A stretch of DNA of 32,000 nt from Nitrosopumilus sp. (GTDB taxonomy: Archaea; Thermoproteota; Nitrososphaeria; Nitrososphaerales; Nitrosopumilaceae): the NCBI GenBank assembly GCA_963662625.1, contig OY759726.1, positions 1,507,446-1,539,445 of the forward strand, read 5' to 3'. A model generated the notes under the pieces. That model was not told where the DNA came from. It saw nothing but the letters and a program-made list of their open reading frames with translations, and made no database searches. Position numbers and translations under genes: made by a program. Positions within the stretch are counted from its first letter, which is position 1. Every line of letters begins with the position of its first letter. This document shows positions 10,098 to 28,441 of the stretch, piece after piece.

Positions 10098-10516
10098 CGT
10101 GTTACTGATTATTACTAAAGCAGTTATGTACCACGGACGCCTAAGTGAGGCATGATGCGCCCCCACGCGTGCACAAAACCCGCGCCGCCAGGCCCGGCCA
10201 GCATTTCGCCAAACCGGGAAAACGGGGCCGGGAGGGCAAGCGGGGGGACGCGCGCCTGGCGGCCGGGACTTGCAGGGGCCCGCGGCGTTCCCCCGGCCGC
10301 CGCCGCGGCCAACGCCGCAAGCGGCCCGCCGCGGGGATCGGCTGCCAAGCGCCGCAACGCGAGGTGCCGGGAGTGGGCGGCGATCCCGGCCGCGCCCCCC
10401 GGACGCGGCGGGGCGCCGGGGGGCATGGCCTGGCGGCGGCGCGGGGATGCCGCGGTGCAGGCGGGGGGCGCGGGGGATTGAGGGAGACGCCGCCGGTCGA
10501 GGGGAAGTTCTTCTGC

Positions 10517-11698
10517 GTGCACGTGGCAAGGGACGTGTGCGACCTCGTCGAGATCGCCGTGCGGAAGAGGCGCTTCTACAAGATAGCGCTCTTCAGGGTC
10601 ACCGGAGCCAGGCACCGCAGCGCCCAGAGGCTGCTGGAATACTATTCGTGCAAAAAATGCTTCACGTCAGTCGTGGAAAAGGCCGCCGGGCCCAAGAACG
10701 CGGAAGGGGGAGCCGGGCACGGATACAAGGTCACGTGGAGCGGAATGCGGTACGCGGAACGCATGCACCTCCGCGCGAAATACGTGCCGGGCCGCGGCGC
10801 GGTAGCGAGCTGGAACGGCCTTACCCTGGGCTCGTACCATGCGGTAAGGGACGGGGTCGGCTCTACACTGGGATCGGGGTATGACATAGACGCGCGAGGG
10901 GCGGGGGCGGCGTGGCGCCGGGCGCTTGGCCTGGCACTTGACGAGTACGGCCGCATGGCACGCATGCGGCGCCCCGGCAAGTGGGGGGCGGGCAGGCCGC
11001 TGGACGAAAACTGGCTCAGCGGCCAGAAGCGGCCGGTAAGGATCCTGCTGACCAGGATGGCCAAGGCCAAGCTGGCGTCGCTGGATTACGGGGAAAGCCC
11101 CAAGTTTCACCGCGCGTTCGGCACGTTTCCAAGCATCGCGGGGGGCAGAAAGTGCGCCGGGTGCGGCGTATACCTGGAGAGGAGGGCAAAAGACAGGTGC
11201 AGGTTCTGCAGGAAACCCAGAAAAAGCAGGTACGTGGCCGTCCCGAAGGCCGCAAGGAGGATGGCCGCAAGGACCGCGGGAGCGGAGGGCAGGAAGGAGA
11301 GGAGGGCAGAACGGTTCGAGAGCGAAGGCGAGCGCACCGTGATATCTGAGAGCGTCGAGGCGAAGGGGATCCGCGAGACTGCCTCGGAGTTGTCCGAGGA
11401 CTACGGCAGGCCAGAGGCCCTGAGGATGCTGAGGGAGACAGGGGTAGGAAAAGACGAGCTGGAGGACTATTACGAGGACATGGACCCCTGCGAGAGGGAG
11501 GGCGAGCGCCCCGTGGCGTCTGAGAGCGTCGAGGCGAAGGGGATCCGCGAGACTGCCTCGGAGTTAATCGAGGACTACGGCAGGCCAGAGGCCCTGAGGA
11601 TGCTGAGGGAGACAGGGGCAGGAAAAGACGAGCTGGAGGACTATTACGAGGACATGGACCCCTGCGAGAGGGAGGAGAGCGAGCGGGACTCGCGGTAG
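10517..11698 (+). CDS. Hypothetical protein with a Zn-ribbon-like motif and C-terminal tandem 58-aa acidic repeats; start uncertain
   Basis: The long ORF is 10145..11698. Its first ~120 codons are Arg/Gly/Pro low-complexity in about 80% GC DNA and are probably not coding. In-frame GTGs at 10517 and 10523 are candidate starts. It contains 'CAGCGVYLERRAKDRCRFC'. The C-terminus has two near-identical copies of 'ESVEAKGIRETASEL.EDYGRPEALRMLRETG.GKDELEDYYEDMDPCERE'. Confidence 0.45.
   Translation: MHVARDVCDLVEIAVRKRRFYKIALFRVTGARHRSAQRLLEYYSCKKCFTSVVEKAAGPKNAEGGAGHGYKVTWSGMRYAERMHLRAKYVPGRGAVASWNGLTLGSYHAVRDGVGSTLGSGYDIDARGAGAAWRRALGLALDEYGRMARMRRPGKWGAGRPLDENWLSGQKRPVRILLTRMAKAKLASLDYGESPKFHRAFGTFPSIAGGRKCAGCGVYLERRAKDRCRFCRKPRKSRYVAVPKAARRMAARTAGAEGRKERRAERFESEGERTVISESVEAKGIRETASELSEDYGRPEALRMLRETGVGKDELEDYYEDMDPCEREGERPVASESVEAKGIRETASELIEDYGRPEALRMLRETGAGKDELEDYYEDMDPCEREESERDSR
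11324..11671 (+). repeat. 174-bp direct tandem duplication inside the CDS (2 copies plus a short partial third)
   Basis: Copy A starts at 11324 (gaaggcgagcgc..) and copy B at 11498 (gagggcgagcgc..). The period is 174 bp (58 codons). Only a few mismatches are visible, e.g. ttgtccgag vs ttaatcgag and ggggtagg vs ggggcagg. Confidence 0.9.
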
Positions 11699-13374: not shown

Positions 13375-13580
13375 GCCCGTCTTCCCTGAAGTGCCTCACG
13401 GATACGTCGGGGGCAGGGGTTCCGGCGGCACATATCGGCCACGCTGGCCCCCTGGATGAACGCCTGCAGCACCACGCGCACCTTCTCGTCCGTGCTCCGT
13501 CGTGCCCTCCCTTGCCCCCATCGCTAAAGCGCGCAGCGGAGATCTGCCTCCTAGCGGGATCCGCACCGCATCTCATGCTG
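13375..13580 (-). pseudogene. IS3-family remnant (copy 2, inverted): degenerate 5' end and orfA fragment
   Basis: The reverse complement aligns by eye with 9350-9560. Examples: '..cccgctag(aa)ggagg..ctttaRcgatgggRggcaag..' and 'ggagcacggacgagaaggYRcgcRtggtgctgcagRcgttca'. It translates to 'STDEKVRVVLQAFIQGASVADMCRR' and then loses frame. Confidence 0.55.
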
Positions 13581-13657
13581 AACAAACCCACGACGCTATG
13601 CCTCTAGGATGCCGACATGATTTTTTAAGGGCGGCGCCACACGACCGGTGCCGCCCC

Positions 13658-14074
13658 ATGGTTCCAGACGTCTTCTCGAAGGAAAAAAGATCCGAGGTGA
13701 TGCGGGGCATAAAGGGCAAGGGCACCAAGCTCGAGCTGGAGACGGCCCGAATGCTGCGCCGCGCCAAGATCAAGTACAGGTCGCATCCGAAGATCTACGG
13801 ATCCCCGGACTTTTTGGTGGATGGGAGGCTTCTGCTCTTCTGCGACGGCTCGTTCTGGCACGGCAGGAATTGGAAGGTGCTGAGGGCGCGGCTAGCCGCC
13901 GGCAACGATCCCGGCTATTGGGTCAGGCACATCGAAACCAACAGGAAACGCGACAGGAAGGTCAACCGGATCCTGGCAGAACGGGGGTACCAGGTGCTCC
14001 GGCTCTGGGATACGGACCTGCAGAAGCGACCCGAGAAGTGCGTGGAGAAGATCAAAAAAGCGCTGCGTTCCTGA
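13658..14074 (+). CDS. vsr: Very-short-patch repair (Vsr) endonuclease, copy 2
   Basis: 'VFSKEKRSEVMRGIKGKGTKLE', 'GSPDFLV', 'LLLFCDGSFWHG', 'NRKRDRKV', 'GYQVLRLWDTDL'. The ATG at 13658 is internal to track ORF 13502..14074, whose first 52 codons look non-coding. Confidence 0.85.
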   Translation: MVPDVFSKEKRSEVMRGIKGKGTKLELETARMLRRAKIKYRSHPKIYGSPDFLVDGRLLLFCDGSFWHGRNWKVLRARLAAGNDPGYWVRHIETNRKRDRKVNRILAERGYQVLRLWDTDLQKRPEKCVEKIKKALRS

Positions 14075-14451: not shown

Positions 14452-14467
14452 CATATTGGAGAGTAAA

Positions 14468-15442
14468 ATGCATATGAAAAAGGAAACCATGGATATGTCT
14501 GACGCTGAACGAGGGATATCGGATATTGCCTCATCCGAAGGCGATTTATCTGATTTCACAGCAATCTGCAGGTTGATTTGTAATAATCGCGCAATCTCAA
14601 AAGACAGACTTTTCAAAATCATCAAGAATTCCATTATAAACAAATCAGACGCCGTGATTGAGCGAAAATTAAACATTATGTGCAAATTAGACCTGTTAGA
14701 TTTGGCCAACCAAAAATTTGTACTCCGCGCTAATGGTAAAATATTGGTTGAAATAAGCAACAAACAATCTGTTTTTTCAGAAAAAATAGAAAAGGCATTT
14801 TATTTTATAATATTATTCAGTTCGAAAGCAAGACTGCAACTCACCTCGCTCCTTCAATCTATAAACGAACAAAATGGAGACGATAAAAGGGAAAACATTG
14901 CAAGATATTTTAAAGCAAATATAGTCCAGGAGATATGGAATAAAAAAACAATCGAAAAGAATCTTACCGCTTTAGAAACAACACAAAGATTGCCAAGCAT
15001 GCTTAACAATAAATTTTCTTGCATGGAAAAATGGTTAGAGTTTATTGATCTAATAGAAATAAGAAAAAATGGCCTGCACGCAAATTTGACTTCGGGGCTG
15101 ATTAGCTCGCTGCTAAACCCAGAAAACAAGAAAAACATATTTGGCGAAGCCGCAACAAAGTATTACACCGAATCCAAAGAATTCCGCATTAAGCAGCACT
15201 ATCGAGATTTGTGTACGTATTTTCTTGAGGGCCATGGTAAATTCCTCACCCCTGCCGGAATCAGTGACGCCGAAGCAGTAGCAAAATTCGTGTGCTTGCA
15301 ATTACTCAAATCAAACATAATCTTGGAAGAGAACGGTTTTTTCAAACTGACCAAGAAATTAAAAAAAGACAAAATCCTTCGCTCAGTAATGATGGGCAGG
15401 GACGGCACGCCTAAGAATTTCGGCGTGGATTACTATACCTGA
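14468..15442 (+). CDS. Hypothetical protein with an N-terminal winged-helix-like DNA-binding region
   Basis: Low-GC ORF. 'ISKDRLFKIIKNSIINKSDAVIERKLNIMCKLDLLDLANQKFVLRANGKILVE' has a wHTH-like pattern. The track start is TTG 14456, but ATG 14468 or 14474 fits the TATA spacing better. Its 3' end overlaps the convergent ATPase gene by 32 nt. Confidence 0.5.
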   Translation: MHMKKETMDMSDAERGISDIASSEGDLSDFTAICRLICNNRAISKDRLFKIIKNSIINKSDAVIERKLNIMCKLDLLDLANQKFVLRANGKILVEISNKQSVFSEKIEKAFYFIILFSSKARLQLTSLLQSINEQNGDDKRENIARYFKANIVQEIWNKKTIEKNLTALETTQRLPSMLNNKFSCMEKWLEFIDLIEIRKNGLHANLTSGLISSLLNPENKKNIFGEAATKYYTESKEFRIKQHYRDLCTYFLEGHGKFLTPAGISDAEAVAKFVCLQLLKSNIILEENGFFKLTKKLKKDKILRSVMMGRDGTPKNFGVDYYT

Positions 15443-16526
15443 GAATGTTTTTGTTCCTAGCGACAAATTCCGAATTAATATGATCGAGATCTTTTTCAGC
15501 CGCCTCCCGCACCAGCCGTCCACAGTTGGGGAGAAGAAACCCCGGATAGTGGTATTCGGGGCCCATCAGCCCGAATAATCCGTCTAAGGCATCATCACAA
15601 AAGGGAAGCAGTTTGTCTCTCTGCGTGTCTGATTCCCCCAAATAAAGACTGTGGTGAACACGCAAAAACTCTGAAACATGCTCAGCGCCAAGACTGTCAA
15701 GCGGCACCAAGTAATCAAATCTTCTTGAGAGCTGCTCGGAAAACCCGATGTCATACCACTCGTCTTCTTTCTCAGCTGTAAATGATGCGATTAGCGCAAA
15801 ATTTTCTGAAAAATCGTCCAGGAGGGCTCTTAAACTGTCGCCTATGGCGTTGCTAATTCTGATTGGAGTGTTTTCTAATTCGTCAATGACCAGTACTACC
15901 GGCCCAAAATTTTTGCAAAGGTGGGCGATTAGCTCCTTTAGCATCGTTAGTCTTTTGTAATCGCCGTCTAAGGCATAAGTAATGTCCAATTTGTCAAGCT
16001 CTGAGACTGAAAGGCGCTCGCCGAACAACCATTTTTTTGCAAGTTCGGGTTCCCTCAAATTAGTGCTAATCATATAGAGGGCTTTTGCCAATTCGGTGTT
16101 TGGAATTAACTTCTCCCAATTCGCGGTAGAGCCGTTACCATATTTTGCCTTAATAAAATCTGCTATATTTTTAAGGTTGTTTTTCATGAAATATGAAATG
16201 GCTTCCCTATACATTACTGAAAAAGATGGTTCTACTGCAGGGATCAGCGTGTAGATAAAAATGATGTTCTGGGAACCGTGCGAGCGTCTGACTAGCTCCT
16301 TGCTGATGATTTTCGTAAGCCAGGTTTTGCCGCTGCCTGTCTGGCCAAAAATTCTCATTCCCACGCGAGCCCCCCCCGAAACATCCTCCAAAAACTGATC
16401 CAATTTTTTCCTTGCGTCCGCCAAGTCCGGCCTATCCCACTCGAGAAATTTTTCATCAATCTTGTAAGGGTTGGTTGATTCGTAGGGATTTTGAACAAAA
16501 TGGTACTTTTCAAAATATCTGGACAT
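15411..16526 (-). CDS. P-loop AAA-type ATPase (ORC/Cdc6- or AAA_22-like), last gene of the island operon
   Basis: Walker A 'IFGQTGSGKTWLT' and Walker B 'PVVLVIDELENT'. ATG start, 33 nt after the PLD gene stop. Confidence 0.7.
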   Translation of the reverse strand: MSRYFEKYHFVQNPYESTNPYKIDEKFLEWDRPDLADARKKLDQFLEDVSGGARVGMRIFGQTGSGKTWLTKIISKELVRRSHGSQNIIFIYTLIPAVEPSFSVMYREAISYFMKNNLKNIADFIKAKYGNGSTANWEKLIPNTELAKALYMISTNLREPELAKKWLFGERLSVSELDKLDITYALDGDYKRLTMLKELIAHLCKNFGPVVLVIDELENTPIRISNAIGDSLRALLDDFSENFALIASFTAEKEDEWYDIGFSEQLSRRFDYLVPLDSLGAEHVSEFLRVHHSLYLGESDTQRDKLLPFCDDALDGLFGLMGPEYHYPGFLLPNCGRLVREAAEKDLDHINSEFVARNKNILRYSNPRRNS

Positions 16527-16559: not shown

Positions 16560-17030
16560 TTATACTTTTCCTTGTATTTCGCTAATGTATTTCTGGGCAT
16601 TTGAGATGAGATCGCACCGCTCGTTTTCTATGAATATCCCCGCCTCTTTATTTTCGTGAATCGCGGTATTACTAATGTTTAAGCTTGAAACTAAAAGGCT
16701 GTCAGTAGCGCCTGTTAGCAAAACCATCTTTGCGTGTACTGATCTTCTAAACATAATGGTCACTCCTAGGTTTTCAATCAAGTCAGAAACAAATTCCTGC
16801 TCAGTAGGATCATTTTTGAGCGTTCTTTTGTTTATTATGATTATGACCTTTACCTGACTGCGGATCAACTGCTCCAATTTTTTACGAAATGGCACTCCGT
16901 TAATTGTGGCGTTGTGAATGTGCTGGCTAACGATTTTAAGTTGCTTCAGGCCCCTCCTTGCGGTTATCATTTGGTTTAGGCGAAATTCTAGGGAATGGCC
17001 GGAAACAAATTCTATCACCATGCATCTCAC
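16560..17030 (-). CDS. PLD-family (single HKD) nuclease, Nuc/NucT-like
   Basis: One HKD-type motif 'SVHAKMVLLTGATDSLLVSSLNISNTAIHENKEAGIFIE'. At 156 aa it is the size of dimeric Nuc-type endonucleases. An ATG at 17021 preceded by GGGTGA is a likely alternative to the GTG at 17030. Confidence 0.7.
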   Translation of the reverse strand: MRCMVIEFVSGHSLEFRLNQMITARRGLKQLKIVSQHIHNATINGVPFRKKLEQLIRSQVKVIIIINKRTLKNDPTEQEFVSDLIENLGVTIMFRRSVHAKMVLLTGATDSLLVSSLNISNTAIHENKEAGIFIENERCDLISNAQKYISEIQGKV

Positions 17031-17053: not shown

Positions 17054-18082
17054 TTACTGCCTCATGTTTTTTAAGGATTTAAACAGGCTTGCAAAATTCG
17101 TTTTTCCCATGATTCTTTCAACGTATTCGTCGTAGCGGTTCTCGTGAATTAGCTTTCTTGCCTTCTTTAGCTCCTGCTGGTGAGTCCAAGCGTTGTGAAT
17201 CGCCCTGGCGTAAAAATCATCCTCCAGCCCCTTCATACCATGGCGCCTGCACATGGGGCACCTGCAGTTTTCCAGCTTTTTCCCCTCTTCTTTAGAAAGC
17301 CGCGGGTATAGTTTTTTTCTTGCCACCTTTGAAACCCACCTGTCGCCCATCCCGGGCATCTGGATTGCGCCAAACGCCGCCTTTGTCCTCCAGGCAGAAC
17401 TGTCAAGGGAGTCTGCGCCAGCATAGTACATCAAGTGCATCGTGAGCGTGCCGCCTGTGCCAAAAACGTGCAGTTTTGCCCTAGGAATTTGCTTTCGAAC
17501 CTCCAAGATCACCTTCATTACGTTGAGGATCCCGCCCACCCCCTTGACGTTATACATGGCAGGAACCAGGCTGCCAATGCCGTAAATTGGGAACCTGTCG
17601 ATTTTTTTCAGCCTTTTCACATAATCCCGAATTTCTCCTGCGTCATAACCATGAATAACCGGCACCAGAACGGGATTTTTTGTAACTTTGTTTTTTAGCA
17701 TGATCCTTGTATTTTGTAGCGTTTTTGATTTCCGCCTTTCGTTTTCTTCTTTAGGTAGGGTGGGAAACAGGGGATGGTCCAAAACCACGCCAAAATTTGG
17801 TTTAGCCCTTTCGTAGAAACCAATAATTTCTTCTGCAGAAACATCCATGTGTTTTCTTTTCATGAATAAAAACCCGCCAGAATCCATCATGATCGGACCA
17901 CGAAATCCCAAAAAGCCATGAATTTTTTCCTCTTGCGCTGTTTTGAATGCGTGTGGGTGCTGCATAAAGTCATGCGCATTCATTAAAACACCACCCACTC
18001 TGAAATAATTCCAAGGCGCGCTCTTTTTATCTGCGACCATTTGGCTAAACCACAGCATCGGGTATTCTATTTTGTGTTTCAT
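17054..18082 (-). CDS. tRNA-guanine transglycosylase superfamily protein (DpdA/ArcTGT-like base-exchange enzyme)
   Basis: 'IMMDSGGFLF' (cf. the TGT catalytic DSGGFQ block), 'IYGIGSLVP', 'LHVFGTGGTLTMHLMYYAGADSLDSSAW', and a zinc site 'CRCPMCRRH..H' (CxCxxC..H). There is no PUA or C-terminal tRNA-binding extension (342 aa). The ATG overlaps the upstream gene's stop (ATGA). Confidence 0.8.
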   Translation of the reverse strand: MKHKIEYPMLWFSQMVADKKSAPWNYFRVGGVLMNAHDFMQHPHAFKTAQEEKIHGFLGFRGPIMMDSGGFLFMKRKHMDVSAEEIIGFYERAKPNFGVVLDHPLFPTLPKEENERRKSKTLQNTRIMLKNKVTKNPVLVPVIHGYDAGEIRDYVKRLKKIDRFPIYGIGSLVPAMYNVKGVGGILNVMKVILEVRKQIPRAKLHVFGTGGTLTMHLMYYAGADSLDSSAWRTKAAFGAIQMPGMGDRWVSKVARKKLYPRLSKEEGKKLENCRCPMCRRHGMKGLEDDFYARAIHNAWTHQQELKKARKLIHENRYDEYVERIMGKTNFASLFKSLKNMRQ

Positions 18083-18813
18083 GTCGTCTTTATCTGCCTA
18101 AGAAGCGATTTGAGCACCTTTGGGTGGGCCACACCGTACATGTCCCATGCAAATGTACCGCGCTCGTTGACCAGGTTTTTAATTTGATTTTTTGTTGGTA
18201 ATATTTCTATGTCTAAATGATATCTCCGAGATGCTAATTCCAACATTCTCCTATGAGTATGATCGTCTTTTTGATCCAAAGCAGAAGAGTACGTTCTCAC
18301 ACACGCGATTATTTTTTTGTATTCTTGTCCTACTCTTTTTAGTGTCTTTCCAACATTGTCAGAAATAATCTCAATGCTTCTATCCAAGTATTCTTTATCG
18401 TACTCTTGCTTGTATCGACGGCACCACCATTCAAAAAGCCCTGGGCAATCATACCATTCGAACCCAGAAAAATACTGGTCTGGTACTAACCCGAAAGGCT
18501 CTGAAATAGTCATCACCTGAATTTGCTCTCTTTTTCCATTAAGCCTATCTAGATATTGGTACAGCTGTTGGTATGAGCGTGATCTGTTGTATGGCTTAAC
18601 TGTAGAGCATGGATAAATCAGCAAAACGTCTTTTCTTTCTGGGACATACGTTTTGGCCATGAAATTATGCCATTTTTTGATATCCGGGTTGGACGCTAGT
18701 CCTTTGTAGACCTCTTCTGGCGAATAGAAGCACAGGGACTTCTTAATTTTGACACCTTTGCCAACTCTGGAAGAAACTGTTCGGTATAGTTCTAACTTTG
18801 ACATTTCCACCAC
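18079..18813 (-). CDS. DUF5591 / ArcS C1-domain-like protein
   Basis: 'IYPCSTVKPYNRSRSY' matches the published archaeosine synthase signature PC-x3-KPY-x2-S-x2-H, except that the final His is Tyr. It is translationally coupled to the TGT-like gene. An ATG at 18804 is an alternative to the GTG at 18813. Confidence 0.65.
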   Translation of the reverse strand: MVEMSKLELYRTVSSRVGKGVKIKKSLCFYSPEEVYKGLASNPDIKKWHNFMAKTYVPERKDVLLIYPCSTVKPYNRSRSYQQLYQYLDRLNGKREQIQVMTISEPFGLVPDQYFSGFEWYDCPGLFEWWCRRYKQEYDKEYLDRSIEIISDNVGKTLKRVGQEYKKIIACVRTYSSALDQKDDHTHRRMLELASRRYHLDIEILPTKNQIKNLVNERGTFAWDMYGVAHPKVLKSLLRQIKTT

Positions 18814-18834: not shown

Positions 18835-21800
18835 CTAGCCATGATCTTCCACCTCGTCCGAATTCAAGGCAATGCCTAACTTGACAAAGCCTTTCTCATA
18901 CAATATTTGAACAGATTTTGTAACGGCAGGATCAAATAAATTATTGCCAACTTTGTTTAGTCCCGGTTCTAGCTTTCCCGGATCCACGTAATCCTTTCCA
19001 GATGATACGTCCGAAACGAGTTGTAATAAACCGGCAGATCCTCTGTCGATATCTAATTCTTGGATAATTTTTTTCATGAAAACATCTCTCCGCCTATTTA
19101 ATTCATTGACCATTTTAATCCATGTCATTTTATTCATCCTTTGTAAATGGTCTTTTAATTTACTTGAAAATTTTTCGAAATCCATTCTTGATTCTATCAA
19201 GACAACTTGCTTTGATTCAGGTAAATTTTTTGAACAGATATTTACAAAATTAACGAGTGTTTTTGTTTTCGCTTCGACAGCTTCGATAAATTTTTTAATA
19301 ATTTCATGCAACGCTATATTGATCTGCTCTATTTGCTCACTCAAATCCTTCATGTTAGAATTAATCTCTGTCACGCATTTAACAAATATCACAATTTCTG
19401 ATAAAGACGTTGGCAGTTCTAAATATTCTTTATTGGCAGAATTCAAAGATTTTTTCATATCATTAATTTTCTTTTGGATTGCCACAGTGTTGATCGTTGA
19501 GTCTGACACATCTTCAGAACCCACTATAAAGTCACTTAAATCCTCTAAACATTTTTTACATTCCTCATAATGCTTAAGGAAAGTGCATTCATGCTGATCC
19601 ACTTCTTTTATTTTCTCTAATATTTCGCCCCTGCGTTGATTAAAAGCTGCTAGTTTTTGGCTAACAGTAGAAAAATACTCTTCAATTTGTTTTAAATCCT
19701 TTATTTTTGTGGTTTTTGGAAGTGCCGGTGGTTTGATTTGGGTAGCTGACTTGTGTAGGCCGCTGGAAATTTTATGTGCACTCGGAAAAACAAAAGTTGC
19801 GGTTGCAGCCTTAATTTCTCGGTAGGATTCCTTGATACTTTGTGCAAGGCTATTGGTTTTGTCAGTTGTGCGCTTCATCGCGTCAAGTTCAGCATCAAAA
19901 CATTCTACAGCCTTTTTTAGATTATGATAGGGTAAGCTAAAGTAATATGCATCGTCAGCACTTTTCTCAAAATAAAAGGCGGATTTTTTATGATCTTTTT
20001 TAGAGTCTTTCATCCCTATAGATTGAGTTTCTTCTGTGACGAGTCTTCGTTCGTAAGTTTTTTCATATTCGCTCTGAACTAAATCGACAAATTTCTTTTG
20101 GATGCTCTCCAAAATAATTTCAGAAGTGATATGTTGTTCTTTATTGGATACTAGCTTGTTAAATGTTAAAATAATTTCATCTATTTGATGTTTATAGCTT
20201 TCAAATTTAGACATGGTATCCTTGAATAATTTGGCTTTTTGGTTATTTGCCTCGGTAATTATTGGACGAACATTTTCTTGATAATAATCGTAAATTGCAA
20301 TTATTAATTTGGAAAGACGAAGCTCTTCGTCACCGTCTGAATCATTTTTTTTATCAAGTAATCCTTGTAAAACATGAATGTAATCTGATTCACTTATTAC
20401 CCTACATTCTCTCATTTTTGTTTGCGAAATAAAGTGACCGTTTGAATTATCTTGAGGATATGATTCATTCATGTATTTTTCAACAGCATTAATTTTTGGT
20501 TGAAATACTGCATCGCCCTTCTTTATTATGGCGTAAGTGTTATTGGTTTTTCTAATTTTTCCCTTCTGGATCAATGTGTTTAGATAATAATTCTGCAATG
20601 CTCCCTCGGCGTTAGACTGGTTTACGAATTCCTGTTCCAGTCCAGCCTGTGAATTTTTATTTTTTCCTAGTAATCGAATAACCCTTTTTTCTACAGGTGT
20701 GTCAACTGACATGATTACGGAGTTAATGTCCTTTAAAAATTGGTTGTTAGTTAATCCATATGCCCAAGATTTCCATTCGTCTTTAGTTTCAATATCTATC
20801 GGGCAAAATGATCCTTTACTACCAAATAACTTGATTGATTTTAATTTTTTATAAAACTCCCATTGCTCATCGATTGGAAAATTGGATGTACTTATAAAAG
20901 AAGAGATCGCTTCTCTGATACTGCTCTTACTGTAATCTCCCAATTCTTTGAGTAACGGAATTATGATTCCGGAAGCTTCCGCCTTTGGAATCCAAAAATT
21001 TTCAATGCGTTGCTTCAGCTTTAATTCATTTATTATTGCAGAAATGCGGGATTTTTCAGTGATGCGATTAATTTGGATTTTTTCCACTTTTGCACGTTTC
21101 CAACAAAGTAACTGCTCGACATTAATTCTGTCTATTGGAATTCGCTGAATCTCACCCACACCCTCCAGTAATTCATGAACGGGTTTTTCCAAATGTGTTT
21201 GGTAGAATAACAAAGTCAGAACTGCAGGAGTGGCATCAACAAGCTTTCTAATTTTATCAATTTTTTCTACAGAAATATTCTCGATGATTCCTTCAATTAT
21301 AATGGGAATTGGATTGTCCCGTTCATTTAACTTTAAAAGAAAATACTCCTCCTGCGGCTCACAATTAATATCTGAAAGTTTTATCGCATCAATTAGTGCG
21401 TACTTGAGATCATGATGAATCTTATCACGGTTTTTCACATCCCCCAAATCCCTTTGGATTTTTCTTCTTAACTCTAGCCGTTTACTTCTGTCTTTAATAA
21501 AATCAAATTTAATTAAGTTTGGAGATGGAAAGACGTTTTCTAGAAGATTTACTGAAACACGGTAAAATCTATTCGAGGTATCGAAATTATTTTTCACGGA
21601 ATGATAGAATTTTCCAGCAATGGTACTATCAATACCTAACAATCTAGATAATTCGTGTGGGTCTTTTGGAATTACAATCTCTTTATCAAAATAATTCTTT
21701 GATAAATTACTGCTTATAACATAGTTTGTAAATGATTCTTTTAATGTAGCGATCAGGATAGAATTATAGTCAACAGTTATGTACTGATTCTTGCCTTGTT

Positions 21801-23109
21801 CGATTTTTGTATAGTTTGATAAAATTGAATCGAAATCCCGCCCTTCTTTCAATTTATAATATACCCCAAAAGCAGAATCAAGTTTGTTTTGGTTTTGAAG
21901 ATTTTCATTAATTTGATTAACCAAATTGCTGATATCTTTTTTAGGAATACTTAATCTTTCAGAAATTTCATCGATGGAAAAGGCCTTGTTTTCTCCTGTT
22001 AGCAATTCAAAGATTTTAATTAATTTTTCCGAATTTCTCCTTGAATTACTTAATGACTTTCTGAAACCATCTAGCATGTTAGCTTCAATTGCGGACGTGG
22101 ATGATCCATAAACGGAAACTTTGACATCATTTAATTCTTTAAACAGCTGTGTGTAATCAATGCAGCATATCGTGGTTTTATCATAAGGGATCGCCTTGCT
22201 CATTAGCTTGTAGAGCAGCTGGATTAATGCCCTGGGGTTTCTTTGAGAAATATTTACAATAGTTTCAAAAATCCCGGCACTAGCAATTGGCAACTTTTCT
22301 AATTTTCCAGCATAGCTAACTTTTACTAGCTCAGATAAAAAGTGGTAGCAATCAAATCTCGAGAGGAGAGGTAATTCAATCAAATTGTAGGCGAGTCTTT
22401 GTTCAGTGCTCCCCATTACTTGAGAAAAATTAGGATCTTCAGTAATCGTATTCCATGCATACGGCGTACACGCAACAAAGATGTGCAACCTTCCCTCGTA
22501 TTTACCTCCTTCAGATAATGATCCAAATTTTTTGTTGATGACTTCTTTAATTCCTGAAATCACATCAGCTTTAATATCCTCATTGTAGAGAATTTCTTCA
22601 AACTCATCTAAAAATAAATACATTTTTTTTTGATTATTTTCAAACAATTCTGCAAGTTTTTCATTCAGATATCTTACTGGATCTTTTATCATATCTTTGT
22701 AAAACAGTCCTTTATCTCCCTCCTGAGAATATAGATCGTCACCCACTGCAGTTAATAATGCTGTTAAAAAATTGGTGGCGGTGTTTGAATGATGCGTATA
22801 GCTTTCATTCCTACGTAATTTCTTTGCCAGTGTACTGGTAGATACCGAATAGCAATAGTGATGTTTTAGAACCGTTGAGATATAGCGATCAAATGCATCA
22901 GTCTTACCTTCCCCCCATTCTGCTTTAATCAGACATATCTGGATGTTCTTATCATTACGAGTTTTTTCAATAAAGCCGTCGATTAAATTCGCGACTGATT
23001 CGCGCCCAGGAATCTTTGCATTTTTAACTCCTTGGAAAGGAACGCCTTTGGGGTCTGGTAGATTTCTGAGATCGAAAACTGGTGCAGTGCTAACCATCCT
23101 AACCCTCAC
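18835..23109 (-). CDS. Very large (1424 aa) P-loop NTPase (KAP / COG1483-BrxC-like N-terminus) with a long uncharacterised helical C-terminal region
   Basis: Deviant Walker A 'CLIKAEWGEGKTDAF' (AxxxxGKT, as in KAP-type NTPases) and Walker B 'KMYLFLDEFEEIL'. The remaining ~1150 aa are K/E/N/I-rich, with long heptad-like stretches near the C-terminus. An ATG at 23097 preceded by GGTGAGG is a likely alternative to the GTG at 23109. Confidence 0.7.
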   Translation of the reverse strand: MRVRMVSTAPVFDLRNLPDPKGVPFQGVKNAKIPGRESVANLIDGFIEKTRNDKNIQICLIKAEWGEGKTDAFDRYISTVLKHHYCYSVSTSTLAKKLRRNESYTHHSNTATNFLTALLTAVGDDLYSQEGDKGLFYKDMIKDPVRYLNEKLAELFENNQKKMYLFLDEFEEILYNEDIKADVISGIKEVINKKFGSLSEGGKYEGRLHIFVACTPYAWNTITEDPNFSQVMGSTEQRLAYNLIELPLLSRFDCYHFLSELVKVSYAGKLEKLPIASAGIFETIVNISQRNPRALIQLLYKLMSKAIPYDKTTICCIDYTQLFKELNDVKVSVYGSSTSAIEANMLDGFRKSLSNSRRNSEKLIKIFELLTGENKAFSIDEISERLSIPKKDISNLVNQINENLQNQNKLDSAFGVYYKLKEGRDFDSILSNYTKIEQGKNQYITVDYNSILIATLKESFTNYVISSNLSKNYFDKEIVIPKDPHELSRLLGIDSTIAGKFYHSVKNNFDTSNRFYRVSVNLLENVFPSPNLIKFDFIKDRSKRLELRRKIQRDLGDVKNRDKIHHDLKYALIDAIKLSDINCEPQEEYFLLKLNERDNPIPIIIEGIIENISVEKIDKIRKLVDATPAVLTLLFYQTHLEKPVHELLEGVGEIQRIPIDRINVEQLLCWKRAKVEKIQINRITEKSRISAIINELKLKQRIENFWIPKAEASGIIIPLLKELGDYSKSSIREAISSFISTSNFPIDEQWEFYKKLKSIKLFGSKGSFCPIDIETKDEWKSWAYGLTNNQFLKDINSVIMSVDTPVEKRVIRLLGKNKNSQAGLEQEFVNQSNAEGALQNYYLNTLIQKGKIRKTNNTYAIIKKGDAVFQPKINAVEKYMNESYPQDNSNGHFISQTKMRECRVISESDYIHVLQGLLDKKNDSDGDEELRLSKLIIAIYDYYQENVRPIITEANNQKAKLFKDTMSKFESYKHQIDEIILTFNKLVSNKEQHITSEIILESIQKKFVDLVQSEYEKTYERRLVTEETQSIGMKDSKKDHKKSAFYFEKSADDAYYFSLPYHNLKKAVECFDAELDAMKRTTDKTNSLAQSIKESYREIKAATATFVFPSAHKISSGLHKSATQIKPPALPKTTKIKDLKQIEEYFSTVSQKLAAFNQRRGEILEKIKEVDQHECTFLKHYEECKKCLEDLSDFIVGSEDVSDSTINTVAIQKKINDMKKSLNSANKEYLELPTSLSEIVIFVKCVTEINSNMKDLSEQIEQINIALHEIIKKFIEAVEAKTKTLVNFVNICSKNLPESKQVVLIESRMDFEKFSSKLKDHLQRMNKMTWIKMVNELNRRRDVFMKKIIQELDIDRGSAGLLQLVSDVSSGKDYVDPGKLEPGLNKVGNNLFDPAVTKSVQILYEKGFVKLGIALNSDEVEDHG

Positions 23110-24775
23110 CTAGTAAACCCTTCACTACATCAGTAGTTCCAGCAGTGTGTGGGATCACCCTGTCATTTGAGCTCACTTTAATCGTTAATGGAATGGGTAA
23201 TTTTTTGGACATTTGCCCCGTAACAATTACTTGGCCTTGAGAAAGATTCGTTAATTTGTTTTCTCGTGATTTAGGCAAACCTCCTGTCACTTTTCTCACA
23301 AAACTAATATCACCAAATGCGATTCTATGGATAAAGAATGTATTTACCATGGAAACGACCACTTCATCTAAAAATGCAGGTCTTTGAGAGATGAGGCATA
23401 ACCCAATTCCAAATTTTCTTCCTTGTGTTGCAATAACGTGTAATTTTCTTCTAGCTAATCCTGCACCTACCTTGTACACGGAATCATTGGGTATATAGTT
23501 ATGTGCTTCCTCAATTGCAAAAATAATGTATTTCTTTGCTTTATCAGTTTTATAGCGGGTGAAGGTTTTATAAATTAAAGATGCGAAATACCCCACTACT
23601 GCTTGCTTTAACTCTGGGGAAATTCCCGGCGCGCCATCAGATGAAAAATCTATTATTGCAATTTCGCGGTTATTTGTAAGTTTGTCAAGGAAATTACGAG
23701 TAATTGTGGGATCCTCATCGAAAAGTTTTGATGTTAAAGCTTCGCGTCTAAATTTTTCTAATGCTCTTCGTATTGCACCTGCAACAGAACTATGAATTTC
23801 TGGATTTTTACCAGTTGAGAAATCGTTTAATTTAGTAGTTATGCGTTCGAATTTGGCTTCATCAGTGAATAACTCACTATAACGGAATTCTGGAGGTTCT
23901 TGGTTTGGATTTCCGATATCATTTTGTAGTTCCATATATTCAATCACTCTTTCCAGTCCCGTAATTTGAAGTTCGGGCAACTCCCCACCCGTATAAAACT
24001 GCATTATGATTTCCGCTAATTCAGTTCGTGATAGTGTACCTAGATCAATTCTTAGTTCAGCGACGTTTGCATCTCCTCGTTGTGTGGATACAGGGAAAAC
24101 ATATCGTGTAATATTTTTACACGCGCCATCTAAACTATCTCCATTAACTGCATAATCAGTATAGTCGCCATTAGAATCTATTATCAGCATGGGCATAGCT
24201 ACTAGTCGGGTTGGTCCTGCAGGGACATTCACAAATTTTTCAATCAGTGCACCCACGTTGTAGGATTTCCCACTACCAGTAGTCCCAAAAACTGCCATAT
24301 GCATCGGTATTTCTTCTATACTCAGCGGAATTGGGGCCTTTTGATATCCAAGTAGTGTACCATACCACACGTATCCTGGTTCGTTTCTTCCAATCCCAAA
24401 AATCGTTTCAGGATCAGACACGTCAACTTCAAAAACAGGGTCGCCTGGCAGCGGAGGATGGTTAAGCAGGGCCAGATGTGGAATTTCGCCTAAAAGCTCC
24501 AGTGTACAGGTTACATATTGCCGGGCTACGTTTGAAGGGATACTGAAATCCTTTCTTCTGGATTCTGACCACGCATCCCCTTTGGTGTAGAAATCATTGT
24601 GAGGTTCTACGCTTTCTACATGAGCAAGAATGTCTTTGCCTCTAGATTCAATTAAGACTAATTTGCTCTCCGTTATTTTATGCTCAAAGTTTTCAAATAA
24701 CTGAAATTTTGCTTCAGAAGAAGAACCGGCAGTGAGGATGACTCCTATTTTATCCCCTTTTGGGTTTCTGGCCAT
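23099..24775 (-). CDS. herA: HerA-like (DUF87, FtsK/HerA-class) ATPase
   Basis: N-terminal barrel-like region, Walker A 'VFGTTGSGKSYN', Walker B 'YIIFAIEEAHNYIP', and 'ATQGRKFGIGLCLISQRPAFLD'. The ATG at 24775 overlaps the NurA-like stop (TGATG). The track's TTG at 24778 is an alternative start. Confidence 0.85.
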   Translation of the reverse strand: MARNPKGDKIGVILTAGSSSEAKFQLFENFEHKITESKLVLIESRGKDILAHVESVEPHNDFYTKGDAWSESRRKDFSIPSNVARQYVTCTLELLGEIPHLALLNHPPLPGDPVFEVDVSDPETIFGIGRNEPGYVWYGTLLGYQKAPIPLSIEEIPMHMAVFGTTGSGKSYNVGALIEKFVNVPAGPTRLVAMPMLIIDSNGDYTDYAVNGDSLDGACKNITRYVFPVSTQRGDANVAELRIDLGTLSRTELAEIIMQFYTGGELPELQITGLERVIEYMELQNDIGNPNQEPPEFRYSELFTDEAKFERITTKLNDFSTGKNPEIHSSVAGAIRRALEKFRREALTSKLFDEDPTITRNFLDKLTNNREIAIIDFSSDGAPGISPELKQAVVGYFASLIYKTFTRYKTDKAKKYIIFAIEEAHNYIPNDSVYKVGAGLARRKLHVIATQGRKFGIGLCLISQRPAFLDEVVVSMVNTFFIHRIAFGDISFVRKVTGGLPKSRENKLTNLSQGQVIVTGQMSKKLPIPLTIKVSSNDRVIPHTAGTTDVVKGLLGEG

Positions 24776-25944
24776 CAATGAACATCTCCCATCATTTTCA
24801 TTTGAATTATGTTTTCCACATCTTCATTACTCTTAGAACCGGTAATAAATTCCCTAAATAATATGTCTGCCGCTCCTTGTCCAATATTGCACTTTTCATG
24901 TGCTAAAATCACAGGAATAGGGATGTGTCTTCCGGGTGCAGCCCACCTAACGATAGATTTGATTGCTTCGATTACTAAATCATTTTTAACAAATTTTTTG
25001 CTTGGAGACAACGCAATATCTACACGAATAGGGCTGGAGACATAGCCATTTGCCATCAGAAATGTTAAAACATCCACACCATTGTTCTGATATTCATTTG
25101 CGGCTTTTTTACCAATTTCGCCAGTTTTTCCTTTAGAGTTAATCTCTGAAAGTAAAATTGGTTCAGTGTAAGCAAGACAGTCTTTATCATTTTTTAGATA
25201 CTCTGTAAAAATATGTACTGCTAAATTTTTATCTGAAAGCATATTTTCAAATTCAACTGATTCGCTTAAAGGAAAAAATGATTTGTAATGGTTGGAGAAT
25301 AATGTTCCGCTAATTCTTTTTACGATTCCAATTAACTGTGCTCCTCTCGAAAAACCCTGTTTGATCGCAAATGTCCTTCCTTCAACGTATTGTTTTTGAT
25401 TTTCGAACGGAGGATCAATAATTGGACCATCAAGAAAAATAATTCCATCGCTTTCTTTTTTCCTAGACATCGCCGTAACCTTTAACGCTTCTGTTTCCAT
25501 ATCCATCATGAATTTTTCCGCCGCAGCGCCTGCGCCTTTCTCGTCAATTTGATTTATTGTTCGAATTGCTGGAGTTACTAGAACATCAACGTCAGAATCA
25601 TAACCTTGGGGATACCTTATTCTTGCGACGCTGTAAAAAATCATCCACCCGCCATCTGGTCTGGGGTATTTTTGCAGACTTCCATCTACGGCATCTGTAA
25701 GCGTTTTGGCATATTCAGAAAGATCTGTTTTTGTCAAATCCATTTTATGAATAATGCTTTTCGAAACCATTAGTGAGAGAGCTTTCTTAGCACTTTTGCG
25801 ATATTCTTTGGCAGATTGCTTCATTGCCTCGGATTGTTTTGATGTTTCCTCAACAAATTTTACCATGGCTTCTGCAGGAAGCTTGTTGAAGCTAAGCATG
25901 TTGAGTTCTCTACGAAGCTGTTCTTCTTTGTATAAATCAGGCAT
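24775..25944 (-). CDS. nurA: NurA-like nuclease, first gene of the island operon
   Basis: NurA motifs occur in order: 'TDAVDGS', 'MDMETEAL', 'IIFLDGPIIDPP', 'LIGIVKRISGT', 'PVILAHEKCNI'. Confidence 0.7.
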   Translation of the reverse strand: MPDLYKEEQLRRELNMLSFNKLPAEAMVKFVEETSKQSEAMKQSAKEYRKSAKKALSLMVSKSIIHKMDLTKTDLSEYAKTLTDAVDGSLQKYPRPDGGWMIFYSVARIRYPQGYDSDVDVLVTPAIRTINQIDEKGAGAAAEKFMMDMETEALKVTAMSRKKESDGIIFLDGPIIDPPFENQKQYVEGRTFAIKQGFSRGAQLIGIVKRISGTLFSNHYKSFFPLSESVEFENMLSDKNLAVHIFTEYLKNDKDCLAYTEPILLSEINSKGKTGEIGKKAANEYQNNGVDVLTFLMANGYVSSPIRVDIALSPSKKFVKNDLVIEAIKSIVRWAAPGRHIPIPVILAHEKCNIGQGAADILFREFITGSKSNEDVENIIQMKMMGDVH

Positions 25945-25975: not shown

Positions 25976-26352
25976 ATTTTAGTGTGGATAATGCGGCAGT
26001 CTGTACACATGATAACCAACCAGACGTATCTGCATCAACGGATCGACTCTTTGCATGTGGGCCCAGTGCCCTTGAGCTTGAGTGGGGCAACCGAGCTGGT
26101 TGTGTATTGGGCCTAGTGCCTTAACAGGCGTGTGTATATTCCTGCCCGTCAGACATTTGAAAGGATGTGATGGGAAAGGATTAGAAAGACAAGCACAGGG
26201 ATAGACATAGGGGAGGAAAACTGCGACATGTGCATGGTGGATATGCCGGGACGATCCTCGAGGGAGGGCATTACCCCAACACCCGGGACGGAGCGTGGAA
26301 GTTTGTGAGAGTGATGGCGCGCAGGTGCCTGGGGGCGGCTCCCGGAGCATAG

Positions 26353-26362
26353 AAAATAAAAG
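26353..26362 (+). promoter_or_regulatory. TATA-like box of the OLD-family nuclease gene
   Basis: AAAATAAAAG is centred about 26 nt upstream of the ATG at 26384. Confidence 0.45.
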
Positions 26363-26383
26363 TATCATGCGTACCTGAAACCC

Positions 26384-28441
26384 ATGCGCCTGGCAAGCTT
26401 TCATATAAAGAAGTACCGCTCCATCGAGGACTCTGGTGAAATACGAGTTGATGAAAACGTCACGACTTTTGTAGGGATCAATGAAAGCGGCAAGACAAAC
26501 GTCCTGCGAGCACTAAAGAGGCTAAACCCTATAGAGGACACCTGCTTCAATGATCTTGCCGAACAGCCCACATGGCACTTTGAAAGCATGGATCCGGAGG
26601 AAGTCTTCGTCACCGCAACTTTCAAACTAAGCGGTAAAGAAAGAGACAGGGTTAGTGAAATCAGCGGCAGGCTGGTGCAACTAGACGAAGTCAAGTTCAG
26701 CAGGAGAAAGAATATGAATCTTATTTGTGATCTTGAGGCCGAGCAAGAGGCGATCCACTTTGATGCGTTTGACAGGAACTACCTGCAACCCATACTCGCC
26801 ATCCTTAACTCTGTTAATCCGAACGCCTTTGAGCGTGGTCAGGGGCAGAAGGACATCATCATAGGAATATTCGAAGACATAGTACATGGTTACGAAGGGA
26901 AGTCAAACGTGAGGCAGCCACAAACCCTTGCTTCAATAAAGCAACGCATGAAGTATTTCACACACACGTTATCTGTAATTTCGGGCGACCACGCAAAAAA
27001 AGCCTCGATTAATTCTGCGATTGAAAGGATATACTCCGAAGTGACGGAGGATCCTACAGAAAAAATAAAGGAATACCTTGTCAAAGCTCTGCCCCGGTTC
27101 ATTTATTTTGCAAACGTTGCCATAATAGACAGCAGGATTCACCTGCCGACGTTTGTCAAAAAACTTGATGCGAGTGGGCTGAGCGAAGACGAAAAAACTG
27201 CAAAGACTCTACTGGATCTGGCAGGTTTGGACGCAAAAGACCTGCACAAGCTAAGCACGGATGGAAATGACCGCGCAGAGGTTCGAGAAAACCATGACAG
27301 GTTGGATAGGTTGCTGAGTGGCGCATCAACGAAGGTCTCCAACGAGATTGACAGTATCTGGGATCAAAACGACCACGACATAGAGTTCAGGGTTCAAGGA
27401 GAGAATTTCAGGGCATGGGTGATCGACAGGAAAGACAAGACAAAACTCCAACTGGAGGAGGGAAGCAGGGGATATCGGTGGTATTTTTCCTTCTACGTGA
27501 TTTTCAGCGCAGAATCAAAGGGGAGACACAAAGACGCGATAATTTTGCTTGACGAGCCGGCGCTGTACTTGCACCCGAAGGCGCAGTCGGACCTTCTCAA
27601 AAACGTGCTTCCAAAGATGGCGGAAAAAAACCAGATCCTATACACCACGCACTCGCCTTTCATGGTGAACCTGAGTGATCCGGCCAGCATCCACACTGTC
27701 ACGCTAAAGGACATCGAACTGGAAGGCCGGGCCGCTAGGAAAGTCACGCAGATATCTGACAAAGTATGGGACGACGACCGCATGGCACTGTTCCCATTAC
27801 AATCTGCGCTTCATTACACAATGGCACAATCTATGTTCATCGGCAAAAAAAACCTCATAGTGGAAGGCGTCACAGATCTTTGGATGCTGGGCGCTGCTTC
27901 GGCCCTCTTGGAATCTGCCGGCAAAACTCATTTGAAGCAGGATTTCGTGCTTGTCCCGGCCGGGGGAGCAACCAAGTCGGTATTCTTTGCGAGCACGTAC
28001 AAGTCACAGGGATTGGACGTCGCGGTCCTGCTTGACGCCGATCCAGAGGGGGAAACTGCACATGACTTGCTTGTTAAGAACAAGGTACTCCGAGGTCAGA
28101 AGGTCGTCCTGATCAACGAGATGCTGGGCAAGAATGGCAACATGTCGATTGAAGACGTGTTTCCGGAGGATTACTACCTGAAATTCGTAGAATCAGCCTA
28201 TCAAAATGAACTCAATGAAAAGAAAATCGAAAGAATCACGCTTACGTCGCAAGATCCGATGGTGCTGAGGAGAATAGAAGAATTCTTCAGGGAGAAAGGC
28301 CTGCCAGAATTCCACAAGGGTAGGCCAGCGCGTGCTATACTGGAAGAGTTTGGTCAAGCCGATACGAATGCCCTTCCTGAGGTTCTTATCTGCAGGCTTG
28401 AGAAACTGTTTGCGGGGATTAACAAACTGATGGGCGGTTGA
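26384..28441 (+). CDS. OLD-family ATP-dependent endonuclease (ABC-type ATPase fused to Toprim)
   Basis: N-terminus 'FHIKKYRSIEDSGEI..TTFVGINESGKTNVLRAL' (Walker A), 'GSRGYRWYFSF' (signature-like), 'AIILLDEPALYLHP' (Walker B), 'ILYTTHSPFMV' (H-loop). C-terminal Toprim 'NLIVEGVTDLWML' and 'AVLLDADPEGE'. Confidence 0.85.
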   Translation: MRLASFHIKKYRSIEDSGEIRVDENVTTFVGINESGKTNVLRALKRLNPIEDTCFNDLAEQPTWHFESMDPEEVFVTATFKLSGKERDRVSEISGRLVQLDEVKFSRRKNMNLICDLEAEQEAIHFDAFDRNYLQPILAILNSVNPNAFERGQGQKDIIIGIFEDIVHGYEGKSNVRQPQTLASIKQRMKYFTHTLSVISGDHAKKASINSAIERIYSEVTEDPTEKIKEYLVKALPRFIYFANVAIIDSRIHLPTFVKKLDASGLSEDEKTAKTLLDLAGLDAKDLHKLSTDGNDRAEVRENHDRLDRLLSGASTKVSNEIDSIWDQNDHDIEFRVQGENFRAWVIDRKDKTKLQLEEGSRGYRWYFSFYVIFSAESKGRHKDAIILLDEPALYLHPKAQSDLLKNVLPKMAEKNQILYTTHSPFMVNLSDPASIHTVTLKDIELEGRAARKVTQISDKVWDDDRMALFPLQSALHYTMAQSMFIGKKNLIVEGVTDLWMLGAASALLESAGKTHLKQDFVLVPAGGATKSVFFASTYKSQGLDVAVLLDADPEGETAHDLLVKNKVLRGQKVVLINEMLGKNGNMSIEDVFPEDYYLKFVESAYQNELNEKKIERITLTSQDPMVLRRIEEFFREKGLPEFHKGRPARAILEEFGQADTNALPEVLICRLEKLFAGINKLMGG

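Follow-up and report, generated by a model that had tools for sequence, protein, structure and literature searches.

What does an archaeosine-type enzyme pair do inside an island of nucleases? The question is raised by a 32,000-nt stretch of Nitrosopumilus sp. DNA (assembly GCA_963662625.1, contig OY759726.1, positions 1,507,446 to 1,539,445; the whole stretch is called the window here). In it, a gene for a stand-alone DUF5591 protein, equivalent to the C1 core of ArcS, overlaps a gene for a minimal protein of the tRNA-guanine transglycosylase (TGT) fold. Our analysis suggests that the two proteins are probably the modification module of an archaeal 7-deazaguanine restriction-modification (R-M) system resembling bacterial Dpd. 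Support for DNA as the substrate comes from the proteins and from their surroundings. The TGT lacks tRNA-binding domains and carries a DpdA-type His (H144) and an insert of the STSV2 type, and the DUF5591 model matches the fold of ArcS2 from Vibrio phage nt-1. In addition, a QueC gene can be a neighbor, the conserved pair is linked to nucleases (mostly NurA with the translocase HerA and a giant STAND-like ATPase), the island has a low GC content, and the family is absent from IMG/VR contigs.

A DUF5591 protein coupled to a DpdA-like transglycosylase

Both open reading frames (ORFs) lie on the minus strand exactly where an earlier sequence-only reading had placed them, and the stop/ATG overlap that it described between the 244-aa and 342-aa genes is an ATGA shared by the two (Table 1). 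The public gene call for the DUF5591 gene (P0001) starts at the ATG at 18804, three codons after the GTG, and gives a protein of 241 aa. Exact-sequence look-ups among contigs matched neither this protein nor the window TGT.

The 342-aa protein matches the Pfam TGT family with E=1.2e-25. Its barrel has the three invariant Asp of DpdA, which serve as general acid/base, in base recognition and as nucleophile. In 117 sequences these residues, D67, D102 and D227, never vary, and their counterparts in the alignment are D95 and D130 of DpdA and D95, D130 and D249 of ArcTGT; D227 falls in the 'sIDS' block of DpdA, the expected location of D256. The invariant H144 aligns with chain residue 201 of 7UI4, which is His181 of Salmonella DpdA once the 20-residue tag offset of the chain numbering, verified on D95 and D130, is subtracted. 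A His at this position reads the base's Watson-Crick edge in DpdA, where tRNA TGTs have a Gln (Gln169 in ArcTGT). A structural Zn site of the CxCxxC...H type (C273, C275, C278 and H296) is present without tRNA-binding domains, as in DpdA. The first Asp is part of an MDSGGF block, the Zn site has the form C273-x-C275-x-x-C278...H296, and C1, C2 and PUA domains are lacking; the sequence-only reading had recognized the DSGGF block, the CxCxxC..H site and the absence of PUA and C-terminal tRNA-recognition domains. The nucleophile Asp227 is followed by an insert, R232-x-K234-A235-x-x-G238...[DE]247-R248, which is common to STSV2 DpdA and every DUF5591-linked TGT examined and is missing from ArcTGT.

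Over the whole protein the relationships are different. A profile of the TGT family scores 116 bits against ArcTGT (1IQ8), 41 bits against Salmonella DpdA (7UI4) and ~34 bits against bacterial TGT in the PDB. The AlphaFold (AF2) model of the protein, with a predicted local distance difference test score (pLDDT) of 90.3, best matches P. horikoshii ArcTGT (1IQ8), and this in the catalytic domain only (template modelling (TM) score of 0.76 for the query, TMq, and 0.46 for the target, TMt). With 105.8 bits the protein stays below the cut-off of 350 for the TgtA equivalog (TIGR00432), and the C-terminal domains and Gln169 of that enzyme are also absent. Judged by its sequence, the TGT is ArcTGT-like overall with a DpdA-like active site. 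Assignment to DpdA4, the archaeal-virus DpdA (Pfam DUF6610, PF20314), was rejected, as only the TGT family PF01702 was matched at E<=0.01.

The partner protein matches Pfam DUF5591 with E=2.4e-13 (50.6 bits, cut-off 26), and the Rossmann-like C1/DUF5591 catalytic domain of ArcS is its sole domain; the TGT-like, C2 and PUA domains fused to it in ArcS are absent. Against the ArcS equivalog NF040592 it scores 49.3 bits, far from the cut-off of 440. In its AF2 model (pLDDT 97.5), Foldseek found a single significant match in the PDB, 2Q07 (E=1e-5, TM 0.46), the ArcS-type structure of AF0587. A phmmer search of the PDB with the single protein gave no match, and 2Q07 was reached by sequence only with the family profile. 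Among viral proteins, Foldseek ranked the DUF5591 protein of Vibrio phage nt-1 first (E=8e-8, TM 0.62/0.66, 218 columns); it is an ArcS2 that tblastn did not detect and that structure comparison alone recovered. The model is therefore closer to the DNA-acting nt-1 ArcS2 than to the tRNA-type AF0587, which fits the earlier proposal of a product beyond preQ0. Like ArcS2, the protein is a stand-alone DUF5591 core whose gene adjoins that of a DpdA-family transglycosylase. In Thermococcus argininiproducens (locus L010), a gene for a DUF6884 protein (L010:11054-11530) directly follows the TGT gene, and a phage DUF6884 protein is among the structural neighbors of the DUF5591 model (probability 0.96, TM 0.37). 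This model-based match hints at a distant relationship between DUF6884 and the ArcS C1 fold.

The ArcS signature PC-x3-KPY-x2-S-x2-H is recognizable in the 244-aa protein as PCSTVKPYNRSRSY, in which all positions are kept but the last, where Tyr81 replaces His. In a profile alignment with 2Q07, the Tyr of the DUF5591 family falls on the His of PCTARKPYLTSRTH, so the substitution affects the genuine motif residue. All of the top 120 homologs are proteins that stand alone, in most cases with ~230-280 aa; the motif is exact in 113 of them, with Tyr as the final residue in 111, His in 1 and Phe in 1. Our genome and metagenome scans gave 95 loci (68 distinct at 95% identity), and 93 of the 95 have Tyr at this position. 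His occurs in one lineage only (L043/L044), and STSV2 ArcS2 and AF0587 both retain it. Since this lineage is nested inside the Tyr clade, the sequences suggest that His and Tyr do a similar job. The sequence-only reading was right about the change itself and its place in the motif. The change is a clade signature and weak evidence for new chemistry, and we rejected the idea of a private, function-changing mutation. The DUF5591 genes of the His lineage (L043:10001 and L044:399) carry the motif PCSTEKPYHKSRSH; in this lineage a 58-nt gap, not an overlap, precedes the TGT gene, and in L043 a QueC match is near.

Pairs of DpdA with a stand-alone DUF5591 protein (ArcS2) are known in viruses, namely STSV1, STSV2, STSV4 and Vibrio phage nt-1 with its DpdA2 and ArcS2 (PMC10516641, PMC6884629), a precedent that the sequence-only reading overlooked. 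The authors of the study on these viral pairs also noted that some archaea encode C1 alone (PMC10516641). Among viral sequences, our pair is most closely related to the DpdA/ArcS2 genes that lie next to each other in STSV1, STSV2 and STSV4, with 28-32% identity. Because these relatives are overlapping DpdA/ArcS2 genes, we regard the pair as a DpdA-type transglycosylase and an ArcS2-type core. The viral and archaeal pairs share the overlap of a minimal TGT-fold transglycosylase gene with a stand-alone DUF5591 gene; STSV2 DpdA shares the DpdA-type His and the post-Asp insert with the window TGT, and nt-1 ArcS2 superposes on the window DUF5591 model over its full length. In contrast to the STSV genes, the archaeal pair is cellular and has the reverse gene order (DUF5591, then TGT), and its proteins, of 244 and 342 aa, exceed those of the virus in size (185 and 291 aa). 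STSV2 DpdA has lost the Zn site that the window TGT keeps, and STSV2 ArcS2 has the motif His where the window protein has Tyr. Unlike the viral pairs, the window pair is embedded with NurA, HerA and the giant ATPase.

The sequence-only reading had treated the two genes as a split ArcS. We rejected this because the TGT is ArcTGT/DpdA-like and complete, with all three catalytic Asp and 105.8 bits against ArcTGT (TgtA) compared to 28.4 bits against ArcS, and because DUF5591 followed by TGT is the reverse of the ArcS domain order. A related alternative is a housekeeping or alternative tRNA archaeosine pathway, in which the TGT would place preQ0 at G15 of tRNA and the C1 core would make G+, as with split ArcS/ArcTGT genes. 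The chemistry would be the same, with a TGT barrel inserting preQ0 and C1/DUF5591 modifying the nitrile. Both in sequence and in structure the TGT is matched best by the catalytic domain of ArcTGT (1IQ8), the DUF5591 protein folds like ArcS C1 (2Q07), stand-alone C1 genes have been noted in archaea, and ArcS can act on substrates down to the preQ0 nucleoside. However, neither protein has PUA or C2 domains: compared with ArcTGT, the window TGT lacks C1, C2 and PUA and has His for Gln169, and compared with ArcS, the DUF5591 protein lacks the N-terminal TGT-like, C2 and PUA domains and has Tyr for the motif His. Both proteins score far under the TgtA and ArcS equivalog cut-offs. The pair is linked to NurA, HerA and the STAND ATPase or to other nucleases in a defense-island setting, not to translation genes; its low-GC island looks horizontally acquired, and IS110 transposase and integrase genes are found near the pair elsewhere. 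A tRNA pathway is therefore very unlikely in our view. The lack of tRNA-binding domains and the replacement of the ArcTGT Gln by a DpdA-type His agree with the non-tRNA, most likely DNA, substrate proposed by the sequence-only reading, as does the company that the pair keeps, which consists of interchangeable nuclease modules and once QueC.

The TGT also has weak sequence matches to Cap10 (E ~1e-4 to 8e-3), the TGT-fold defense protein of type IV CBASS, which acts together with a QueC-like protein, no longer has the Zn site and uses a Lys to read the base. By analogy, the window TGT could bind or process a 7-deazaguanine attached to a protein and regulate a NurA-HerA-ATPase effector with no nucleic acid being modified, and a QueC gene does adjoin the pair in one locus. 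We consider such a role highly improbable. The TGT family of the window keeps both the CxCxxC...H site and the DpdA His, on which grounds Cap10-like protein conjugation was rejected; in place of a QueC-like ligase, its partner is a nitrile-modifying core of the ArcS type; and we saw neither a CD-NTase nor any other evident protein target whose N-terminus is conserved.

Linkage to NurA, HerA and a giant ATPase

The conservation of the cassette was overlooked by the sequence-only reading and is the more novel point. Among 50 informative distinct loci, 43 have a TGT gene of the DUF5591-linked type directly downstream of the DUF5591 gene on the same strand. The candidate TGT start overlaps the DUF5591 stop by 1-17 nt in 57 of 76 adjacent pairs, counted without de-duplication of the loci. 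Four more loci have a TGT nearby that is more divergent but is also minimal and has the same His and insert signatures. NurA, HerA and a giant ATPase of ~1400 aa accompany the pair in 28 of the 32 loci that were informative in having at least 7.5 kb of upstream DNA, and most of the 28 form a tight co-directional array. Carriers of the cassette include the isolate Thermococcus argininiproducens (L010; CP080572 1,395,063-1,416,109) and an Asgard metagenome-assembled genome. The named matches are all archaeal and come from Nitrosopumilus, Bathyarchaeia, Methanodesulfokora, Methanomethylicia, Thermoplasmata, Desulfurococcales, Helarchaeota, Aenigmatarchaeota and Thermococcus.

In the window, the NurA gene comes first in the array. 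It overlaps the HerA gene by 4 nt, the HerA gene overlaps that of the giant ATPase by 11 nt, and the latter is separated from the DUF5591 gene by 21 nt, ahead of the 4-nt overlap with the TGT gene. NurA is also annotated in L010, L011 and L013. The PDB matches of HerA include 4D2I and anti-phage HerA complexes. The giant protein has the Walker A sequence GEWGEGKT, of which GEWGEGK is invariant among its orthologs, and 10 of 21 orthologs show a weak match to Pfam nSTAND_NTPase5; it also has coiled-coil/SMC-like matches in the PDB, an SMC-like coiled-coil tail and matches of the winged-helix type.

The array continues beyond the TGT gene with a small PLD-like gene 23 nt downstream and, after a 33-nt gap, a gene for an AAA ATPase. 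The PLD-like gene has the same place after the TGT gene in the Nitrosopumilus locus L001/L015. Orthologs of the AAA ATPase adjoin the pair in L001/L015, L006 and L026, and in the same loci tblastn found orthologs of a convergent 328-aa protein beside the AAA gene. These three genes constitute an accessory module, and the window thus has two DNA-cutting modules, the other being NurA-HerA-giant ATPase.

Other loci show different combinations. The closest long-contig relative, from Nitrosopumilus, has the order QueC-DUF5591-TGT-PLD-AAA followed by NERD and integrase genes, and QueC matches lie within ~3 kb of the pair in L043 and L057. The pair occurs without NurA, HerA and the giant ATPase in L007, L036, L059 and L015. 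In L036 a protein with a FokI-type cleavage domain (L036:9319-9984) is encoded directly upstream of DUF5591-TGT, with a DUF7119 protein before it. Since the exceptions swap in PLD/AAA or a FokI-type nuclease, the pair behaves as a portable module with interchangeable DNA-cutting modules, and such swapping is what one would expect a portable modification module to show. Other loci have IS110 transposase and integrase genes near the pair. Two loci have an extra protein of ~233-255 aa encoded between the TGT-like and DUF5591 genes (L008:4735-5502 and L095:6575-7276); that of L008 has a weak match to Pfam Hus1, a sliding-clamp-like family (E=3e-4).

Portability could also mean that the pair modifies DNA without providing a self-mark for the neighboring nucleases. 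It could serve anti-restriction for the mobile island, or act on invading DNA, either as a base-exchange effector or by removal of foreign deazaguanines. The DpdA/ArcS2 pair serves anti-restriction in viruses, the archaeal module is sometimes found without NurA, HerA and the giant ATPase, and some loci have integrase or transposase genes nearby. Such a role fits the tight nuclease linkage less well, given the 28 of 32 loci with all three partners, mostly as tight co-directional arrays, and the equally close junctions in the window. Moreover, another nuclease usually replaces the missing partners, and a scan of IMG/VR viral contigs found no member of the pair's family. We therefore regard an anti-restriction or effector role as unlikely.

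A candidate archaeal restriction-modification system

In the R-M system that we favor, the minimal TGT would act as a DpdA-type DNA-guanine transglycosylase that exchanges selected guanines of the cell's own double-stranded DNA for preQ0, which the archaeosine pathway of the host would supply. The co-translated ArcS2-type DUF5591 protein would then convert the nitrile of the DNA-bound preQ0. The product would most simply be the amidine dG+, and an amide, a carboxy derivative or an amino-acid adduct may also be possible. DNA lacking the mark would be attacked by the NurA nuclease, the HerA translocase and the giant STAND-like ATPase, and in the window the PLD/AAA module may attack it likewise.

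The proposed system resembles Dpd in its general organization. The bacterial system (dpdA-K in Salmonella Montevideo) uses DpdA to insert preQ0 into DNA and DpdC to make dADG (PMC10164549). In both cases a TGT-family DpdA and a second, converting enzyme are encoded in a genomic island that also holds restriction genes for helicases and nucleases, and Salmonella DpdA shares the three catalytic Asp, the equivalent of His181 and the Zn motif with the window TGT. The window differs from Dpd in having no homologs of DpdB, DpdC or DpdD-K. As second enzyme it has an ArcS-type DUF5591 protein instead of a DUF328 protein, the pair is accompanied by NurA, HerA and a STAND-like ATPase (plus PLD and AAA), and the named relatives are all archaeal. 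In a PADLOC scan of the island, DpdA was the only component of the Dpd system matched, with no DpdB, DpdC or DpdD-K, and PADLOC 2.0 had no model matching DUF5591, NurA or the giant protein.

Several observations weigh against this proposal. Over its whole sequence the TGT resembles ArcTGT, a tRNA enzyme (116 bits), more than it does bacterial DpdA (41 bits), and it scores 57.4 bits against the NCBIfam DpdA model (NF041059), which has a cut-off of 200. The island has no DpdB- or DpdC-like partner, while Salmonella DpdA needs the DpdB ATPase. ArcS of T. kodakarensis transfers lysine and is inactive without RaSEA, and no radical-SAM gene was found in the five loci annotated with Pfam. On the last point, the nt-1 ArcS2 together with DpdA2 made dG+ in E. 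coli plasmid DNA with no radical-SAM partner (PMC10516641), which speaks against the stalled intermediate that the sequence-only reading had expected for lack of such a gene. STSV2, the nearest viral analogue, has dCDG and not dG+ in its DNA (PMC10516641); therefore, the product of an ArcS2 is not predictable. It also counts against the proposal that we infer the DNA substrate and the identity of the product from the residues and gene context described above. A restriction role of the partner proteins is likewise suggested by their company with the pair.

The locus also has features in common with BREX-related capture (BRC), which comprises PglZ, DUF6079, DUF4007 and HerA/FtsK, with or without GNAT and a TGT proposed as a marker of self DNA (PMC12839542, 2026). 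Common to both predicted defense loci are a TGT homolog, a translocase of the HerA family and a STAND/ORC-like ATPase. DUF5591 and NurA are missing from BRC, and its assignment to the window was rejected because none of its defining components PglZ, DUF6079, DUF4007 and GNAT was matched among the scanned island proteins.

The island and the significance of the cassette

The pair and its partners are part of an island at ~14.0-28.5 kb of the window (Table 1), with 33-46% GC inside a Nitrosopumilaceae chromosome of 60-79% GC, and the island was probably acquired horizontally. The sequence-only reading had called it nuclease-rich, and the NurA, PLD-like and OLD/TOPRIM proteins encoded within it bear this out. 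No tRNA gene, Rfam family or island-flanking direct repeats were found in the window.

Table 1. Coordinates of the gene pair and of the other island features, as positions in the window
Feature	Position	Strand	Remarks
Stand-alone DUF5591 (ArcS C1-core, ArcS2-like) gene	18079..18813	minus	244 aa from GTG start
Minimal TGT-fold transglycosylase gene, DpdA-like	17054..18082	minus	342 aa
ATGA overlap of DUF5591 stop and TGT ATG	18079..18082	minus	Read from the sequence; translational coupling
NurA-family nuclease	24775..25944	minus	389 aa; Pfam NurA E=4.4e-10; first gene of co-directional array
HerA-family translocase/helicase	23099..24778	minus	559 aa; Pfam DUF87 E=3.5e-26; PADLOC HerA 3.8e-35
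Giant STAND-like ATPase	18835..23109	minus	1424 aa; N-terminal STAND/ORC-like P-loop NTPase, winged-helix-type region, long coiled-coil tail
Small PLD-family (DrmC-like) putative nuclease	16560..17030	minus	Pfam PLDc_2 E=4e-9; PADLOC DrmC 4.9e-9
AAA_22/KAP-like P-loop ATPase	15411..16526	minus	371 aa; Pfam AAA_22, DUF87, AAA_16; last of array
328-aa protein	14456..15442	plus	No family match; convergent with AAA gene
OLD-family nuclease (AAA_15 + TOPRIM)	26384-28441	plus	Matches Old, AriA, GajA and PtuA models; right island edge, divergent from cassette

The OLD gene is not conserved beside the pair in other loci and is thus probably a separate defense gene. A 141-aa ORF upstream of NurA (25979-26404, minus strand) shares 21 nt with the beginning of the OLD gene; it matches no family, and none of the related loci has an equivalent. 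The chromosomal flanks encode Dcm, Vsr, EgtD, EgtB and ProRS, the last with 62-69% identity to ProRS of Nitrosopumilus and Cenarchaeum, which puts the host among the Nitrosopumilaceae. The Dcm cytosine methyltransferase in the left flank (1503-3007, plus strand) is followed by an HNH protein with an IscB-like HNH region, and the Vsr mismatch endonuclease lies at the island boundary (13502-14074, plus strand). These genes look like a further set for modification and repair, of the conventional kind, next to the island. Most long ORFs of the high-GC flank have no family match. One of them, of 503 aa (7733-9244, plus strand), has no Pfam or NCBIfam match, lies in a local GC dip (~51-54%) and may be another acquired gene. 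A 174-nt tandem repeat at 11317-11675 (2.1 copies, 94% identical), inside the ORF at 10145-11698, doubles a peptide of ~58 aa. Positions 1-1000, with 79% GC, contain long overlapping ORFs in multiple frames that are low in complexity and rich in Pro, Arg and Gly, and no credible gene.

In the literature that we searched, no published description of the DUF5591-TGT-NurA-HerA-giant ATPase cassette was found, although an earlier mention may exist. The pairing of DpdA and ArcS2 is already known in viruses, and it is its cellular cassette context that appears to be new. A 2025 review lists Dpd as the sole host 7-deazaguanine R-M system. Host-encoded 7-deazaguanine marking of DNA has so far been established only for bacterial Dpd (dPreQ0 and dADG), and archaeosine-type DNA bases have so far been known from viruses only. 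Against this background we suggest, as a possibility that we hold tentatively, that the cassette is the first host-encoded 7-deazaguanine DNA R-M system of Archaea, in which an archaeosine-type base or an unseen preQ0 derivative, put into chromosomal DNA by the DpdA-like TGT and the Tyr-variant ArcS2, would be read as self by NurA, HerA and the STAND ATPase. The cassette is of interest in being widespread, coherent and testable in a cultured organism: Thermococcus argininiproducens has it in complete form, so the R-M idea can be examined directly. If true, it would extend deazaguanine epigenetics to archaeal chromosomes and give a defense role to the NurA-HerA pair, otherwise known from DNA repair. 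It would also offer a natural series of His/Tyr variants for dissecting the chemistry of ArcS, and would help to explain the origin of the orphan DpdA/ArcS2 genes of the STSV viruses.

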